A stretch of DNA of 64,000 bases from Patescibacteria group bacterium. GTDB taxonomy: Bacteria; Patescibacteriota; WWE3; JAUXAW01; JAYEID01. The DNA lies in the NCBI GenBank assembly GCA_034659915.1, contig JAYEID010000013.1, positions 74,917 through 138,916 on the forward strand, read 5' to 3'. Shown one piece after another: positions 9,414 through 52,393 of this stretch. How positions within the stretch are numbered: position 1 is the first letter of the stretch; every line of letters starts with the position of its first letter. The position numbers and the translations under genes were made by a program. The notes beneath the pieces are model-generated. The model searched no databases and was not told where the DNA came from. It worked only from the letters and a program-made list of their open reading frames with translations.

Positions 9414-10487
9414 ATGGCAAATTATTTTTTTGCAAGAACAAAAAGGCGAGTACGTGCTGCTTTTGCAAAAGCACGTTTCCAAGGTTATTTACAAAAGGCA
9501 CATTTTTTGAGGCTTGCTGGTGTATGCTTTCTTCTTGCTTGTACTCTTTTTTCTAGTTCCTCTCCCCTTGTACAGAGTAATGAAATTGAAGATGGAAAAG
9601 GGGGAGAACAATCTCAAAGTTTGGTTGCTGGTGCAAAGGAAAATTCCTTTGAAGCAGCAGAGCCAGAATGGCCAAAATTAAGAGATGATGCGCCGGAATT
9701 TCCAACAGTTTCGGCAAAAGCAGTTTTGGTAAAAGATAGTAAGACAGGAAAGACTTTATACGAAAGAAACTCTACTGAGAGAATTGCTCCTGCTTCCTTG
9801 GTAAAAATAATGACTGCTTTGGTTGGTTTGGATAAGTATTCTTTGGAAGATGAGTTGGTGGTTTCAGAAAGTTGCCTTTCCGGGTTGGAGGGAAAAGCTC
9901 AGATGAATTTGCAAGCGGGGGAGCGTGTTAAAGCGGGTACCCTACTCTACGGCCTTTTATTACAGTCTGCTGCTGATGCTGCTTGTGTCTTGGCTCGGGA
10001 CCCGGAAAACATGCTTGACGACTACCGTGGTAACGAGCAGCTTTTTGTTGAAAATATGAATCAAAAAGCTTGGGAACTAGGGTTACGTAATACTCGGTTC
10101 CAAAATGTTATTGGTGTAGATGAGGAAGAGCAGTATTCGACTGCGGCAGATCTTTTGCATTTAGCTCAGGTTGCGATGGAGAATCCTATTTTTAGAAAGA
10201 TAGTTGGAACAAAGGAAATTAACCTGCATAATGCTGCTAATCCCCCAACCCAGTGGCATTATGTGCAAAATACAAATGAACTGTTGGTACCGGAATTAGA
10301 AGTTACTGGAGTAAAAACAGGAACAACTACCAATGCTGGTGAGTGCTTACTTGTATCTTGGTTATGGAAAATTCGGGAGATTTATGCAGTGCTTTTGGGA
10401 AGTGAAAAAGATCAGCGGTTCGCAGAATCGCGTAAAATTATAGATTGGGTAAACTCTTCGTTTGTAGCTAATCCTAGTCCTCGTTAG
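9414..10487 (+). CDS. serine-type D-Ala-D-Ala carboxypeptidase (PBP5/DacA family)
   Basis: N-terminal hydrophobic anchor, active-site SxxK (ASLVKIM), later LLYGLLLQSAADAA block. Confidence 0.7.
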   Translation: MANYFFARTKRRVRAAFAKARFQGYLQKAHFLRLAGVCFLLACTLFSSSSPLVQSNEIEDGKGGEQSQSLVAGAKENSFEAAEPEWPKLRDDAPEFPTVSAKAVLVKDSKTGKTLYERNSTERIAPASLVKIMTALVGLDKYSLEDELVVSESCLSGLEGKAQMNLQAGERVKAGTLLYGLLLQSAADAACVLARDPENMLDDYRGNEQLFVENMNQKAWELGLRNTRFQNVIGVDEEEQYSTAADLLHLAQVAMENPIFRKIVGTKEINLHNAANPPTQWHYVQNTNELLVPELEVTGVKTGTTTNAGECLLVSWLWKIREIYAVLLGSEKDQRFAESRKIIDWVNSSFVANPSPR

Positions 10488-22186: not shown

Positions 22187-22388
22187 AAACGCTCGTTGGA
22201 GAGTTTTTAGAGGTGGCGGCAAGTTGGGGGGTGGGGGCTTTGTTGTTTATTTGAATTGCCGGTAGGCACCAAAGCGGCGCCCCACAAGCAGGCTTGTGAC
22301 TTCCTGCGAAGGGCGGGGGTGTTTTAGAGGCACCCCTTTGTTCCTTGCCTTGAATAATAAAGCTTGAATTAATTTTTTGATTTGTGTT

Positions 22389-23318
22389 ATGAAACTTAAA
22401 CTGGTTACAATTGTAATTTTTTCTTTCTTCTTGTTTTTCCCTTTCCAAAGAGCGCGGGCGCAGGAAATGGTTACTCTTAGTGTTTCGCCGCCGGTTTTTG
22501 AGCTTACAGCTAATCCGGGGGATACGCTCAAGAATGTGATTCGGGTGAGTAACCCCCACGAGGAGCCGCTTAAAGTTTCGGTGGATACCCGCAATTTTGT
22601 GGCGGTGGGTGAGGTTGGCTCGGTGGGGCTTACGGAGGAAGAAACGCCCTATTCTTTAGCTTCCTGGATAAGTGTAACCCCTACTCAGGTTGAAATCCCC
22701 GGCGAATCCAGCTGGTATTTTAATGTTGAAACAAATGTTCCCTTGAACGCAGAACCCGGCGGTCATTTTGGTTCCGTGGTTTTTAAAACAGGCGGCGGCG
22801 CTGTCCAGCAGACCGGTGCTGCAGTTACTCAGGAGTTGGGTTCTTTGTTTTTGCTGAGGGTTTCGGGAAAGGTAACTGAAGACGGTCGGGTGGAAAGCTT
22901 TTCAGCAGAGAAAAAGTTTTGGGAATACGGTCCTATCCGGTTTGATCTGCGGGTGGAGAACAACGGCAATGTGCATATCAAACCGCAGGGGAAAATAGCA
23001 ATTACTAACATGTTAGGAAAAGAGGTGGCTGAGGTGGATGTTAAGCCGCAAAATGTTTTACCTGATGCGGTCCGCAAGTTTTCACCAACCTGGGAAAAAG
23101 AAATTCTTTTTGGAAAATACACAGCAACCGCATCTCTGGTTTACGGCAGTGATAGCGAGGTTTTAAATGCAACTACGAGTTTCTATGCTTTCCCCTACAA
23201 AGTAGGGGGTGCGGTTTTGGCTGGCCTAATTGTTATTGGCTTTTTGCTCTACCGTGGTCGAAGAAGAATAGCCTTAGCCCTACGGATACTGTTTGGGAAA
23301 CATGAAGACAAGGCCTAA
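22389..23318 (+). CDS. membrane-anchored surface protein, paralogue B
   Basis: Blocks VSPPVFELTANPGD, LASWISVTP, EPGGHFGSVVFKT, ENNGNVHIKPQGKI, C-terminal TM then RGRRR; ATG 22389 (ORF track opens at TTG 22377). Confidence 0.6.
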   Translation: MKLKLVTIVIFSFFLFFPFQRARAQEMVTLSVSPPVFELTANPGDTLKNVIRVSNPHEEPLKVSVDTRNFVAVGEVGSVGLTEEETPYSLASWISVTPTQVEIPGESSWYFNVETNVPLNAEPGGHFGSVVFKTGGGAVQQTGAAVTQELGSLFLLRVSGKVTEDGRVESFSAEKKFWEYGPIRFDLRVENNGNVHIKPQGKIAITNMLGKEVAEVDVKPQNVLPDAVRKFSPTWEKEILFGKYTATASLVYGSDSEVLNATTSFYAFPYKVGGAVLAGLIVIGFLLYRGRRRIALALRILFGKHEDKA

Positions 23319-48809: not shown

Positions 48810-49412
48810 TTGTTAGAATGTCCTTACATTGCAATGATTACCAAGGAACGTGCTTTAGAGATTTTAAAAGGAAATATTGAAAACGAAAACCTCCGAAAGC
48901 ACCATTATGCAGTAGCTGCTGCTATGCGTGCCCTTCATAACTATTTTGAGGAAAAAGGAGAAACTTGTACTGAGCCTGTCGAAGCATGGGAGATTGTCGG
49001 ACTTTTACACGATGCGGATTATGAAGAAACTAAAAATGATCCAGAAAATCACACTTTGGTTTTAGCAGAGCAGTTGGAGGAAGAGGGTGTTTCGGAAAAG
49101 ATAATTCGGGCTATAAAAGCACATAATTGTGAATATACACATACAGAACCGCAGAGCAAGCTTGAATGGTCGCTTATTGCTTGTGATGACTTGACTGGCC
49201 TTGTTGTTGCTGTGGCTTTAGTTCACCCCACTAAATTAGAAGGTGTTTCGGTGGAGTCAGTAATGAAAAAGTTTGATTCCTCTTCTTTTGCAGCTGGTGC
49301 TGACCGGGAAAGAATTGTTCTTTGCGAAGAAAAGCTCGGAATTCCCCTCGAAGACTTTGTTGGTATTGTTCTCTCTGCAATGAAACAAGACCGCGATCAG
49401 CTGGGATTGTGA
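48810..49412 (+). CDS. HD-domain phosphohydrolase
   Basis: HHYAVAAAMRAL...VGLLHDADYE HD motif; start at TTG 48810 or ATG 48834. Confidence 0.6.
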   Translation: MLECPYIAMITKERALEILKGNIENENLRKHHYAVAAAMRALHNYFEEKGETCTEPVEAWEIVGLLHDADYEETKNDPENHTLVLAEQLEEEGVSEKIIRAIKAHNCEYTHTEPQSKLEWSLIACDDLTGLVVAVALVHPTKLEGVSVESVMKKFDSSSFAAGADRERIVLCEEKLGIPLEDFVGIVLSAMKQDRDQLGL

Positions 49413-49466
49413 AGGCGACTCTCCTTTATTAGGGTACTAAAAGATGCCAAAGGTTCTATATGAACG

Positions 49467-49490
49467 TACTAACATGCTAGCATGTTAGTA
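49467..49490. promoter_or_regulatory. 24-bp perfect palindrome (operator candidate) upstream of EamA transporter
   Basis: TACTAACATGCTAGCATGTTAGTA; left flank TATGAACGTACTAACATG is identical to that of site 50421-50438. Confidence 0.55.
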
Positions 49491-49526
49491 TATTACAATT
49501 TTATTTAACTTGATACGAAGCATTTT

Positions 49527-50375
49527 ATGTATATATTTATTCTTGTTGTCATAGTTTCTAGTGGTTTAGCTTCTATTACCTTGCGGTTACTTGGTCGTGA
49601 TGAGCCGCGTGGCGAACTTCCTGCCTTTCTTTTTCAATTTATTAGCGCGCTTTTTTTCTTGCCGTTTGTGCGTGAAGTTCCGTCTCTTTCTTCGGTCTGG
49701 TTTTTTCCTTTTTTAGCGAGTGTGTTTTATGGCTTGGGAAACATCTTTATGTTCAAGGCATTTGAGAAGGGGGAGGTTTCTTTACTTGCGCCTTTGGGTA
49801 ATTTAGGTCCGGTTTTGACTTTACTCTTTTCGGTAGTTTTACTCGGAGAAGGTTTTAGTTGGGCAAAAGTTTTGGGAACTTTGCTTGTTGTTTTTGGTTT
49901 AGCTTTTTTGAAAAAGGGGGAGAATTTTCTCCGATCGTTAGAAGCACTAATTCGGGACAGAAATTGCCGGTTTTACTTTTTGTTTCTAATCTTTTTTAAC
50001 ATTGCCGGTGTGTTTGATAAAAAAGCCACTCCTTACTTTGCCACGACCACCTACAGTTTTGTTCAGTTCTTTTTGCCCTCTTTGATGGTTTTAGCTTATC
50101 TTATTGCCCGGGGTAATTTTGGTAATCTAGTATTATTTACTAAAGTAAGGCTCCCCTTGGCTGTTCTCACTTCGTTAGTGATAAGCATTCGTTACGCAAG
50201 CTTTTATACTGCGATAACAAGTGCAGAGTTAAGTCTTGTTACTCCGCTGTTTTCGCTTAGTACGTTTGTTTCTCTTTTTCTCGCTTCCTGGTGGCTAAAA
50301 GAAAAGGTGGAACAGCGCTGGGCCGCCGCACTTTTTACAGTTCTTGGTTCCGCTTTACTTCTTCATAAACTTTAA
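49527..50375 (+). CDS. EamA/DMT-family transporter
   Basis: 282 aa, 10 TM helices in two EamA-like halves. Confidence 0.6.
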   Translation: MYIFILVVIVSSGLASITLRLLGRDEPRGELPAFLFQFISALFFLPFVREVPSLSSVWFFPFLASVFYGLGNIFMFKAFEKGEVSLLAPLGNLGPVLTLLFSVVLLGEGFSWAKVLGTLLVVFGLAFLKKGENFLRSLEALIRDRNCRFYFLFLIFFNIAGVFDKKATPYFATTTYSFVQFFLPSLMVLAYLIARGNFGNLVLFTKVRLPLAVLTSLVISIRYASFYTAITSAELSLVTPLFSLSTFVSLFLASWWLKEKVEQRWAAALFTVLGSALLLHKL

Positions 50376-50422
50376 ATTGCTCTTAGTGCGATACTAGGTT
50401 TGTGTTTGTACCCTGGCTTATA

Positions 50423-50450
50423 TGAACGTACTAACATGTTAGTACGTTCA
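50423..50450. promoter_or_regulatory. 28-bp perfect palindrome (operator candidate) between EamA 3' end and regulator 3' end
   Basis: TGAACGTACTAACATGTTAGTACGTTCA, followed by the TGTTAACA mini-palindrome. Confidence 0.55.
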
Positions 50451-50506
50451 CATGTTAACATTCTATAACACGCTGCCTGTTTACAATTGGGTATATAGTT
50501 GTTCTT

Positions 50507-50935
50507 TCAAAAAGGAATTCCGGTTTTTGCTAGTTTTTCTCGTGAACTCATTTTTTCTTCAATTTTTCGCATTTCGTCTTTTTCTAGTTCATCTTTGTCT
50601 GGCTTTTTGGGATATAGAATCTTTAATACCAATTCCAGACCCCCTTCACCGAAGTATAGCCTCTTTGCAATTTTGGTAACTGTAGTAGTTGTTGTTTCCA
50701 ACTCTTCTGCGATTTGTTCATATGTTTGTTCCTCTTGCCAGAGTTTTTCGGCAATATGCCAGCGCAGACCCAACATTCTAAGTTCGTTATCCGTAAGAAT
50801 GTCACGAAAAAATTTGGCCTGATCACGAAGGTTTTGTGTTTTGAGGGCCGCAACGAAGAACCCCTTCATTTCCTCGTTCATCCAGGGAAATTCTTTGTTT
50901 TTTTCTTTTGGCAACTTAACTTTAACTCGCGGCAC
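50507..50935 (-). CDS. YerC/YecD-type TrpR-related DNA-binding protein
   Basis: FFRDILTDNELRMLGLRWHIAEKLWQEEQTYEQIAEEL...TVTKIAKRLYFGEGG; start placed at GTG 50935 (SD GAAAGAGGTGA 5 nt upstream) rather than the ORF-track GTG 50944. Confidence 0.6.
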   Translation of the reverse strand: MPRVKVKLPKEKNKEFPWMNEEMKGFFVAALKTQNLRDQAKFFRDILTDNELRMLGLRWHIAEKLWQEEQTYEQIAEELETTTTTVTKIAKRLYFGEGGLELVLKILYPKKPDKDELEKDEMRKIEEKMSSREKLAKTGIPF

Positions 50936-50992
50936 GGTTATCACCTCTTTCTAAGATTATTAGTAGTAATTAGGATGGTCGCATCTTTATAC

Positions 50993-51010
50993 TAACATAC
51001 TAGTACGTGA
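50993..51010. promoter_or_regulatory. related half-site pair in regulator/serS divergent promoter region
   Basis: ACTAACATACTAGTACGT carries both half-site cores (ACTAACAT and TAGTACGT) of the 28-bp palindrome with shorter spacing. Confidence 0.4.
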
Positions 51011-51046
51011 GTATGAGTTTAGTTTAGGGTCTAGAAGTTGATCTGG

Positions 51047-51096
51047 TTCTTTTTTCTTTTTTCTTTTTTCTTTTTTTCTTTTTTTCTTTTCTATAC
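51047..51096. repeat. T-rich simple sequence repeat (CTTTTTT about 6 copies)
   Basis: ggttcttttttcttttttcttttttctttttttctttttttcttttc immediately upstream of the serS -10 (TACTAT at 51110-51115). Confidence 0.6.
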
Positions 51097-51124
51097 TTTT
51101 TTGGTGTGCTACTATGGCAGTTAG

Positions 51125-52393
51125 ATGCTAGATATTGATTTTATTCGTAACAATCCAGATACGGTGCGGAGGGGTTTACAAGCCAAGCAAGCTAATCCTT
51201 CTTTGGTTGATAAAACTCTTGAGTTGGACAAAGAACGGCGTGAGCTTTTGCAAGAGGTAGAAAAACTGCGGCATGAGATAAATGAAATTAGTAATATTCA
51301 GGAAAAGCCATCTGCAGATGATATTGAGAGAGCTAAAAAGTTAAAGAATCAGCTAAGAAAACTTGAACCAAAGCTTCGGGAGGTTGAAGAAAGGTTTAAG
51401 GAAGTTTGGCAACAAATTCCAAATATGCCTGCTGAAGATGTTCCTCGGGGGGAAAGTGAAGAAGAAAATGTTGAGGTTAAAAAGTGGGGTAAGCCACGGG
51501 ATTTTGATTTTGAACCTAAGCCTTATTGGGAGCTAGGCGAAAGCTTGAGAATTATAGATAAAGAAAGGGCAGCTAAAGTTTCCGGAGCCCGCTTTGGTTA
51601 TCTAAAAGGAGCTGCAGTTTTGTTGGAGTTTGCCTTAGTTGACTTAGCAATAAAGAACCTTCTTTGGGAGGGTTTTCTTCCTGTAATTCCACCCGTAATG
51701 ATAAATGATAAAGCCATGCGTGCCATGGGTTATTTGGAACATGGCGGTGAGCAGGAGACTTATCATTTTGAAAAAGACCAGCTTTATTTAATTGGGACTT
51801 CGGAGCAAGCAGTTGGTCCTATGCATATGAATGAGGTTTTGGAGGAGGGTACGTTGCCACGGCGTTATGTTGCTTTTTCTACTTGTTTTCGGCGCGAGGC
51901 TGGTAGCTATGGCAAAGATACTAAGGGTATTTTTCGAGTTCATCAATTTGATAAGGTAGAGATGTTTTCTTTTACCCATCCGGAAGGATCCGAGGAGGAA
52001 CACGACTTTCTCCTCTCTGTGCAAGAAAACCTAATGCAAGAACTAGAAATTCCTTACCAAGTGACAGAAATGTGTACTGGTGACCTGGGTGCTCCAGCAG
52101 CTAGAAAGTATGATATTAATGCCTGGTTCCCTTCACAAGATTGTTATCGGGAGACGCATTCTGCCAGCAATTGTACAGACTTTCAGGCTCGAAGGCTTAA
52201 TGTAAAATACCAAAATGAAAAAGGTGAGAAAGATTTTGTTCATACCTTGAACGGTACTGCGTTTGCTATTGGTAGGACAGTTTTGGCTATTTTAGAGAAC
52301 TACCAACAAGAGGATGGTTCGGTATTGATACCAGAAGCTTTGGAACCTATGGTGGAAATGGGAGTGATTCAGCCTGTCCCAAGTAAATTGTAG
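51125..52393 (+). CDS. serS: seryl-tRNA synthetase
   Basis: MLDIDFIRNNPDTVRRGL N-terminal coiled-coil arm; class II motifs FRREAGSYGKDTKGIFRVHQFDKVEMF, GTAFAIGRTVLAILE. Confidence 0.9.
   Translation: MLDIDFIRNNPDTVRRGLQAKQANPSLVDKTLELDKERRELLQEVEKLRHEINEISNIQEKPSADDIERAKKLKNQLRKLEPKLREVEERFKEVWQQIPNMPAEDVPRGESEEENVEVKKWGKPRDFDFEPKPYWELGESLRIIDKERAAKVSGARFGYLKGAAVLLEFALVDLAIKNLLWEGFLPVIPPVMINDKAMRAMGYLEHGGEQETYHFEKDQLYLIGTSEQAVGPMHMNEVLEEGTLPRRYVAFSTCFRREAGSYGKDTKGIFRVHQFDKVEMFSFTHPEGSEEEHDFLLSVQENLMQELEIPYQVTEMCTGDLGAPAARKYDINAWFPSQDCYRETHSASNCTDFQARRLNVKYQNEKGEKDFVHTLNGTAFAIGRTVLAILENYQQEDGSVLIPEALEPMVEMGVIQPVPSKL

Follow-up and report, generated by a model that had tools for sequence, protein, structure and literature searches.

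Putative operators of a TrpR-like regulator in Patescibacteria, at its own promoter and past its stop codon

The tryptophan repressor TrpR of Escherichia coli is a co-repressor-dependent repressor. TrpR and HisR, both of which act as repressors with a co-repressor, recognize operators that are palindromes of 18-20 bp; the TrpR consensus is TGTAcTnGTnnACnAgTACA, and the half-site is GNACT with an 8-bp spacing (PMC9413887). The HisR motif reads cacTTTAnnnnnnTAAAgtg in Firmicutes, Actinobacteria and Synergistetes and TGTAnTArnnnnyTnTTACA in Proteobacteria, and about half of the hisR genes are preceded by an autoregulatory site of their own (PMC9413887). The subject of this study is a gene for a TrpR-like regulator and three palindromic sites around it, which lie in a stretch of 64,000 nt (hereafter the window) from a Patescibacteria group bacterium (GCA_034659915.1, contig JAYEID010000013.1, positions 74,917-138,916). 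To our knowledge, the control of transcription in Patescibacteria, or candidate phyla radiation (CPR), is almost unexplored, and a full-text literature search returned no paper on a TrpR-like regulator or its operator in Patescibacteria, nor on this clade or these sites. The analysis, which covered 64 kb of the host genome and, for every related locus, between 1 and 10 kb, makes it probable that the three palindromes are operator arrays of the dimeric TrpR-family regulator encoded between sites 2 and 3, and the comparison across loci is the decisive evidence for this reading. A repressor with palindromic operators beside its own gene is textbook knowledge; a clade-specific operator motif for a TrpR-like regulator of Patescibacteria would be new.

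The gene of the YerC/YecD-type TrpR-family regulator occupies positions 50507-50935 on the minus strand and encodes 142 amino acids from GTG 50935. The open reading frame opens formally at GTG 50944; GTG 50935 is the likelier start, because the Shine-Dalgarno-like sequence AGAGGTGA precedes it by 5 nt and orthologous proteins start with MPRVKVK. The product matches Pfam PF01371 (Trp_repressor) with 56.8 bits (cutoff 27, residues 25-108) and TIGR02531 (YerC/YecD) with 48.6 bits (cutoff 42.2), whereas its score of 27.3 bits against TIGR01321, the TrpR equivalog, is well under the cutoff of 67.25. A profile built from the regulator together with its nearest homologues matches the HisR-type structures PDB 3G1C, 3FRW and 3KOR, and E. 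coli TrpR weakly. An AlphaFold2 model built on 40 homologues (predicted local distance difference test score 88.4) is, as a predicted single chain, an all-helical TrpR-like fold with a helix-turn-helix, and a Foldseek search with it gave a template modelling (TM) score of 0.84 and a root-mean-square deviation (rmsd) of 1.3 Å for 3G1C, with TM scores of about 0.7 for 1TRO and 1TRR. The TrpR-like core spans approximately residues 20-107, preceded by about 20 residues that form a basic N-terminal arm and followed by a charged C-terminal helical tail. The product of the adjacent gene is thus a true TrpR-family (YerC/YecD-type) helix-turn-helix protein. It shares Pfam family and fold with E. coli TrpR (trpEDCBA, aroH and trpR operators; 1TRO, 1TRR), from which it differs in the equivalog score, the basic N-terminal arm and the charged C-terminal tail. 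Its closest described family is HisR (YerC of Bacillus subtilis and its orthologues; 3G1C, 3FRW, 3KOR), with TIGR02531 above cutoff and an rmsd of 1.3-1.5 Å, and it differs from HisR in being about 40 amino acids longer. The closest relatives in the databases are annotated as Patescibacteria group bacterium.

Site 1, a putative operator array at positions 49457-49504, lies upstream of a gene for an EamA transporter and has as its core TACTAACATGCTAGCATGTTAGTA, a perfect palindrome of 24 bp (49467-49490) that is separated from the EamA ATG (49527) by a gap of 36 nt. Its YTAR tetramers, CTAA at 49469, CTAG at 49477 and TTAG at 49485, are in 8-bp phase, so that the order on the 8-bp grid is CTAA-CATG-CTAG-CATG-TTAG, and the -10-like hexamers TATATT and TACAAT are found at its right arm, 30-35 bp before the EamA ATG. 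Site 2, a putative array at 50419-50466, is flanked by the stop codons of EamA (50375) and of the regulator gene on the minus strand (50507), 57-84 bp past the regulator stop and 48 bp past the EamA stop; its core TGAACGTACTAACATGTTAGTACGTTCA is a perfect palindrome of 28 bp (50423-50450). The YTAR tetramers of site 2 start at 50431, 50439 and 50455 on the same kind of 8-bp grid and give the order CTAA-CATG-TTAG, with an additional TTAA 16 bp on. Identity between the two regions is 79% over 48 nt and includes a stretch of 20 identical bases, TATATGAACGTACTAACATG (49457-49476 and 50419-50438). Exactly one 8-bp unit makes the difference between the two sites, which is also the case for the pair of sites in a related locus, L019. 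Site 3 (50989-51014, TACTAACATACT and AGTACGTGAGTA on the two sides of the dyad) is a putative autoregulatory operator that precedes the regulator start by 54-79 bp and the ATG of the divergent serS gene by 111-136 bp. Its halves are ACTAACAT at 50991-50998 and TAGTACGT at 51001-51008, and its best dyad, between CT and AG at 51001/51002, is imperfect, with 10 of 12 arm pairs complementary; a -10-like TATAAA follows it on the regulator strand. None of the three sites is assigned a strand.

The palindromes at sites 1 and 2 are non-random. No other perfect palindrome in the window is as long, 50 mononucleotide shuffles reached at most 22 bp, and ACTAACATG occurs six times where 0.43 occurrences are expected. 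The 14-bp unit ACATRYTARYATGT, with two mismatches at most, has 10 matches in 64 kb against 1.58 expected; seven of them fall inside the three sites and the remainder is at chance level. A sequence-only reading of this DNA had described all three palindromes as perfect, which applies to sites 1 and 2, while its site 3 (50993-51010) is real with coordinates about 2 bp off, and the arm that it gave as 18 bp for sites 1 and 2 is identical over 20 bp. It had correctly placed site 2 between convergent gene ends and recognized the adjacent protein as TrpR-like, as PF01371, TIGR02531 and the predicted fold matching 3G1C now show, and a motif scan, which it had proposed for the whole genome, found no dispersal within the 64-kb window.

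An isolated exact copy of the site 2 core, TACTAACATGTTAG (14 bp, no strand assigned), stands at positions 23002-23015 inside the open reading frame 22377-23318, whose product, secreted or located in the membrane, has a weak WxLIP_PGBD match under the threshold. The copy contains the 12-bp palindrome CTAACATGTTAG, and the chance of a given 14-mer in 64 kb is estimated at about 5e-4. It may be an intragenic site or a coincidence, and its membership in the system is uncertain.

The related loci were compared in a clade set of ten, namely the window, L001, L002, L004, L006, L007, L015, L017, L018 and L019. The regulator homologues are 79% (L001), 60% (L002/L003), 65% (L004/L008, identical to each other), 46% (L006), 48% (L007), 63% (L015), 47% (L017), 46% (L018) and 39% (L019) identical to the regulator of the window. 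L005 carries no independent information, being 100% identical to the window over 3514 bp, and the distant homologues L016 and L033 were excluded from the consensus because it is clade-specific. Scans with protein alignment gave one Patescibacteria locus (L008) and six HisR-type loci of Phycisphaerae and Alphaproteobacteria among genome contigs, and one short contig, L015, among metagenome contigs. Each locus was scored by its best dyad, as the number of complementary arm pairs out of 12, within 200 bp before the start or after the stop of the regulator gene. In a background of 452 windows of 200 bp, a score of 10/12 was reached by 1.1% and a score of 11/12 by 0.2%, and the sole background window with 12/12 was site 1 itself.

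An upstream palindrome of at least 10/12, within 200 bp before the start, is present in nine of the ten loci, the window included, and the counterparts of site 3 are those of L001, L002, L004, L006, L007, L017, L018 and L019. Past the stop, within 200 bp, a palindrome of at least 10/12 was found in eight of the nine loci with downstream sequence, again with the window included; L001, L002, L004, L006, L017, L018 and L019 have such equivalents of site 2, and in the eight loci the palindromes lie 18-114 bp past the stop codon. The downstream sites of L001 (GTACTAACATGTTAACATGTTAGTAC, 26 bp, with four phased tetramers) and L004 (TATTAACATACTAGTATGTTAATA, 24 bp) are perfect. The upstream sites are TCACATACTAGTATGTGA in L006 and AGCACATACTAGTATGTGCT in L007; L017 has ATCATGTACTAGTACGTGAT upstream and CTCATGTACTAGTACATAAG downstream, L019 has TAGCGTGCACTAGTGCACGCTA upstream and TTAGCGTGCACGCTAA downstream, and the two sites of L018 follow the pattern TATGCACAT(G/A)TTA(A/G)TATGTGCATA. 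Upstream and downstream sites of the same genome are more alike than sites of different genomes (mean 0.75 vs 0.63; Mann-Whitney p = 0.006, with pairs that are non-independent), as would be expected for binding sites of one co-evolving protein.

L002/L003 lies in a glycosyltransferase cluster, unlike the lysS-HD-...-serS context of the window, and both sites are kept there, so the sites track the regulator gene. This gives support to the proposal of the sequence-only reading that the sites are operators of the adjacent regulator, inasmuch as the palindromes travel with its gene across loci. Conservation of the motif upstream of orthologous transporters, which the same reading had looked to, is absent at the only non-identical EamA homologue found (L032, 52% identical), which has neither a palindrome nor a regulator nearby, so the motif is not transporter-linked. 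The conserved post-stop pattern, which that reading had not foreseen, is an unusual and well-supported feature of these loci.

Alignment of the sites on their dyads gives the consensus unit CAYRTRCT-AGYAYRTG (the hyphen marks the dyad), a palindrome of about 16 bp with a YTAR centre that is often CTAG. In the site regions, 54 pairs of YTAR tetramers are spaced by 8 bp in 19 cases, by 16 bp in 11 and by 24 bp in seven, against a flat background, and the units overlap on the 8-bp grid in the lineage of the window. Site 2, in the form GTACTAACATGTTAGTAC, is an 18-20-bp palindrome with GNACT-type half-sites and 8-bp phasing, the form of TrpR-family operators. Direct comparison of site 2 (cGTACTAACATGTTAGTACg) with the TrpR consensus shows the same outer GTACT/AGTAC at equal spacing and agreement at 10 of the 16 specified positions, and a site of L017 (GTACTAGTAC) also resembles the TrpR operator. 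Like TrpR operators, the sites have a CTAG-type core tetramer, an 8-bp phasing that would allow tandem dimers and a putative operator before the gene of the regulator itself; the title of PDB 1TRR refers to tandem binding of TrpR. Unlike them, they read ACAT-ATGT at the inner positions where the TrpR operator has GTnnAC, they have no trp genes near them, and a putative operator is conserved after the stop codon. HisR likewise uses 20-bp palindromic operators and is frequently autoregulated, whereas the sites here are of the type CAYRTRCT-AGYAYRTG or GTACTAACATGTTAGTAC and not of the type found for HisR.

The profile match, the fold, the form of the operator and, judged by position, a site at its own gene place the system in the TrpR family. 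TrpR proper was rejected, as the equivalog score is below cutoff and trp targets are lacking near the sites. HisR proper was rejected as well, despite the TIGR02531 match, on operator type and targets: his genes or histidine transporters were found in none of the Patescibacteria loci in the local context examined, where the neighbours are EamA, serS, an HD-domain gene, Exo_endo_phos, a GT4 glycosyltransferase, an M16 peptidase and VIT1. HisR-type sites were seen only in the Phycisphaerae relatives, as TTTA..TAAA sites with a probable hisG. In L009-L014, from metagenome-assembled genomes of Phycisphaerae and Alphaproteobacteria with homologues that are 30-41% identical, the elements ACTTTAnnnnnnnAAAGT and TAAAGTAAAG stand by a TTGAC -35-like box about 60-20 bp upstream of the match. 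The downstream open reading frame in at least four of these six loci (L009-L012) begins like hisG, which we take it to be from recognition by eye. These loci appear to fit the published HisR regulon, in a phylum outside the summary of that paper (PMC9413887).

The proposed mechanism follows from the likeness to TrpR. The phased units would be bound by TrpR-like dimers, one to three per site in tandem, as in the case of E. coli TrpR. Site 3 would overlap the promoter of the regulator gene and bring about autorepression; an effect of site 3 on the divergent serS is possible and unsupported. Site 1 would cover the -35/-10 region of the EamA gene and repress the transporter, and site 2 would be the local copy of the conserved operator directly past the regulator stop codon. 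We infer physical binding, repression rather than activation, tandem occupancy and the role of site 2, as well as a small-molecule co-effector that is probably amino-acid-like; for binding, sign of regulation and ligand, the basis is the known behaviour of TrpR and HisR as co-repressor-dependent repressors.

The likeliest roles of site 2 would be those of an auxiliary operator that loops over about 565 bp to the upstream site or of a roadblock between convergent genes. In L001, L002 and L018, the gene after the post-stop site is co-directional (Exo_endo_phos, GT4 glycosyltransferase and M16 peptidase, respectively), so the site could be the operator of that gene; a convergent gene follows in the window, L004, L017 and L019, where the site must have some other role. 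Repression loops formed through auxiliary operators downstream are known from lac O2, gal OI and deo, and protein roadblocks are known as well. By analogy only, the present loci resemble lac O2, gal OI and deo in having a second operator several hundred bp away with the regulated gene between, the dyads lying 500-691 bp apart, and they differ from them in that the distances have no common helical phase. The eight upstream-to-downstream dyad distances are 500, 523, 548, 558, 565, 574, 671 and 691 bp, and hand arithmetic gave no common helical phase among them, which speaks neither for nor against looping. We know of no cooperativity or tetramerization of TrpR-family proteins at such a distance. 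A wider proposal, put forward tentatively, is that the clade uses a "bracketed" layout, with one operator at the promoter of the regulator gene and a usually more perfect one past its stop codon, whatever lies downstream. The arrays would loop out the gene of about 0.5 kb or act as a roadblock or insulator in genomes with few intrinsic terminators, and the regulator would sense a metabolite other than tryptophan or histidine in an organism that is not expected to make amino acids.

In L018, the M16 peptidase gene as called starts at 1666 (region 1666-1800) and so overlaps the post-stop palindrome (dyad 1676). The match to the M16 Pfam domain sets in at residue 53, and some 130 bp later there is an ATG followed by a typical M16 N-terminus. 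The peptidase gene was probably called too long, and the palindrome is probably promoter-proximal to it. A tRNA that was suspected downstream in L006 was not confirmed by ARAGORN.

Several points weigh against the operator reading. The clade set is small (n = 10), with several loci on contigs of 1-3 kb, and L015 has upstream an array of four phased tetramers whose dyad symmetry is poor (8/12). The arms of the palindromes vary considerably between lineages though the recognition helix is fairly conserved. Site 2 and the post-stop sites of L004, L017 and L019 have no gene to regulate. A scan with the consensus promoter, in a group whose promoters are undefined, gave as its sole promoter-like match one that overlaps the EamA ATG and not site 1. 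Finally, the motif may be more widely distributed beyond the scanned 64 kb.

The post-stop palindromes, site 2 and its equivalents, could instead act as RNA, forming a 3'-end hairpin that serves as a terminator or messenger RNA stabilizer for the regulator gene and the convergent EamA gene, with the likeness to the upstream sites being secondary or reflecting a dual function. The location of site 2 between two convergent gene ends, its folding as RNA into a hairpin of 11-12 bp on either strand (region z-scores of -2.2 and -3.2) and the distance of 18-114 bp past the stop in eight loci are what this explanation would want. However, site 2 has no T/U run on either strand and the terminator scan made no call. 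An intrinsic (Rho-independent) terminator at site 2 was rejected on these grounds, the possible hairpin notwithstanding, and Rfam gave no match in 49300-51250 at E values up to 1. A terminator also needs no sequence shared with an upstream palindrome, no YTAR centre and no 8-bp phasing across genomes, and site 1 and the upstream sites lie where terminators are not expected. A role at the RNA level is thus considered unlikely.

The palindromes could also be operators of another DNA-binding protein encoded elsewhere, with the TrpR-like gene as a target and not the binder. Consistent with this, only 64 kb of the genome are visible, and the recognition helix is less variable between lineages than the arms of the sites. 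Yet no gene other than the TrpR-like one stands beside the sites in all of the unrelated contexts, the GTACT/AGTAC halves, the CTAG centre and the 8-bp phasing are the form of the TrpR family, and autoregulation is common in the TrpR/HisR family (PMC9413887), which together make a binder encoded elsewhere very improbable.

A third explanation regards the palindromes as recombination sites or cassette boundaries, dif- or att-like, with EamA inserted between two copies and the regulator and its two flanking palindromes forming a small mobile module. In its favour, what fills the slot next to the regulator gene, on the side of the HD-domain gene, differs among relatives, with EamA in the window, Exo_endo_phos in L001 and no gene in L004; EamA has sites 1 and 2, with their identical 20-bp arm, on its two sides; and a unit of site, regulator and site stands inside the unrelated glycosyltransferase cluster of L002. 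On the other hand, no recombinase or transposase is nearby, the alternative gene of L001 does not have two sites around it, and in L004 a site is kept without a cassette. The sites moreover have the form of TrpR/HisR operators (PMC9413887) in a promoter-proximal position upstream of the regulator gene, and the 142-amino-acid protein is of TrpR fold, with a helix-turn-helix and without a catalytic domain. A role in recombination is therefore regarded as highly improbable.

A dispersed repeat family, of the kind of repetitive extragenic palindromes or miniature inverted-repeat transposable elements (REP/MITE-like), or chance low-complexity palindromes can practically be discounted: the extra 14-bp exact copy in the coding region at 23002-23015 and the 16-mer core TACTAACATGTTAGTA in 12 viral contigs would favour it, but seven of the ten motif matches lie within 1.6 kb around the regulator gene with the others at chance level, the viral matches are at about chance by estimate (the collection size in bases is not reported) and none comes with a regulator homologue, and sites 1 and 2 exceed every shuffle and belong to palindromes conserved beside orthologous regulator genes. 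The REP/MITE-like class was rejected within the 64 kb, which hold three clustered sites and one isolated 14-bp copy.

As operators, the three sites would make this locus a compact regulator-operator pair with a clear consensus, three natural variants of one, two and three phased units, and a DMT transporter as the adjacent candidate target. It would extend the operator repertoire of the TrpR/HisR family and supply a motif with which regulons of CPR genomes could be reconstructed; the question that it raises is why an operator is conserved past a stop codon. If true, the bracketed layout would be among the first definable cis-regulatory circuits of CPR, connected here with a DMT transporter and perhaps also with serS.

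The EamA/DMT-family transporter gene (49527-50375, plus strand), the putative regulated target, encodes 282 amino acids and matches Pfam EamA with 76.8 bits. On the other side of the regulator gene, and divergent from it, lies serS for seryl-tRNA synthetase (51125-52393, plus strand; Pfam tRNA-synt_2b and Seryl_tRNA_N), which shares the intergenic region of site 3; the same divergent layout is found in L004/L008. The flanks are formed by lysS and an HD-domain gene upstream and by the divergent serS downstream. Between the HD-domain gene and the regulator gene is a slot of variable content, which holds EamA in the window (49413-50506) and Exo_endo_phos in L001 (5379-6367), and in L004/L008 it is a stretch of 295 bp with no called gene (L004 671-964). 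EamA is a lineage-specific occupant of this slot.

The two distant homologues have sites of other kinds. That of L016 (47% identity over 65% of the query) is accompanied by (T)TTCTAGTTGT in four direct repeats that are about 18 bp apart (L016 1-181; CTAGTTG repeats), and that of L033 (41%) by overlapping TGTATA/TATACA palindromes (L033 1340-1420), without a post-stop site. From these two loci, DNA specificity and the arrangement of sites appear to diversify within the family.

Another perfect palindrome in the window, TGCTTTTGCAAAAGCA at 9458-9473, is 16 bp long, within the range of the shuffles, and unrelated. Between site 3 and the serS start, a T-rich tandem tract at 51047-51090 consists of about six copies of TTCTTTT, and a period of 8 would fit as well; the tract may be a promoter spacer, an UP-like element or prone to slippage.

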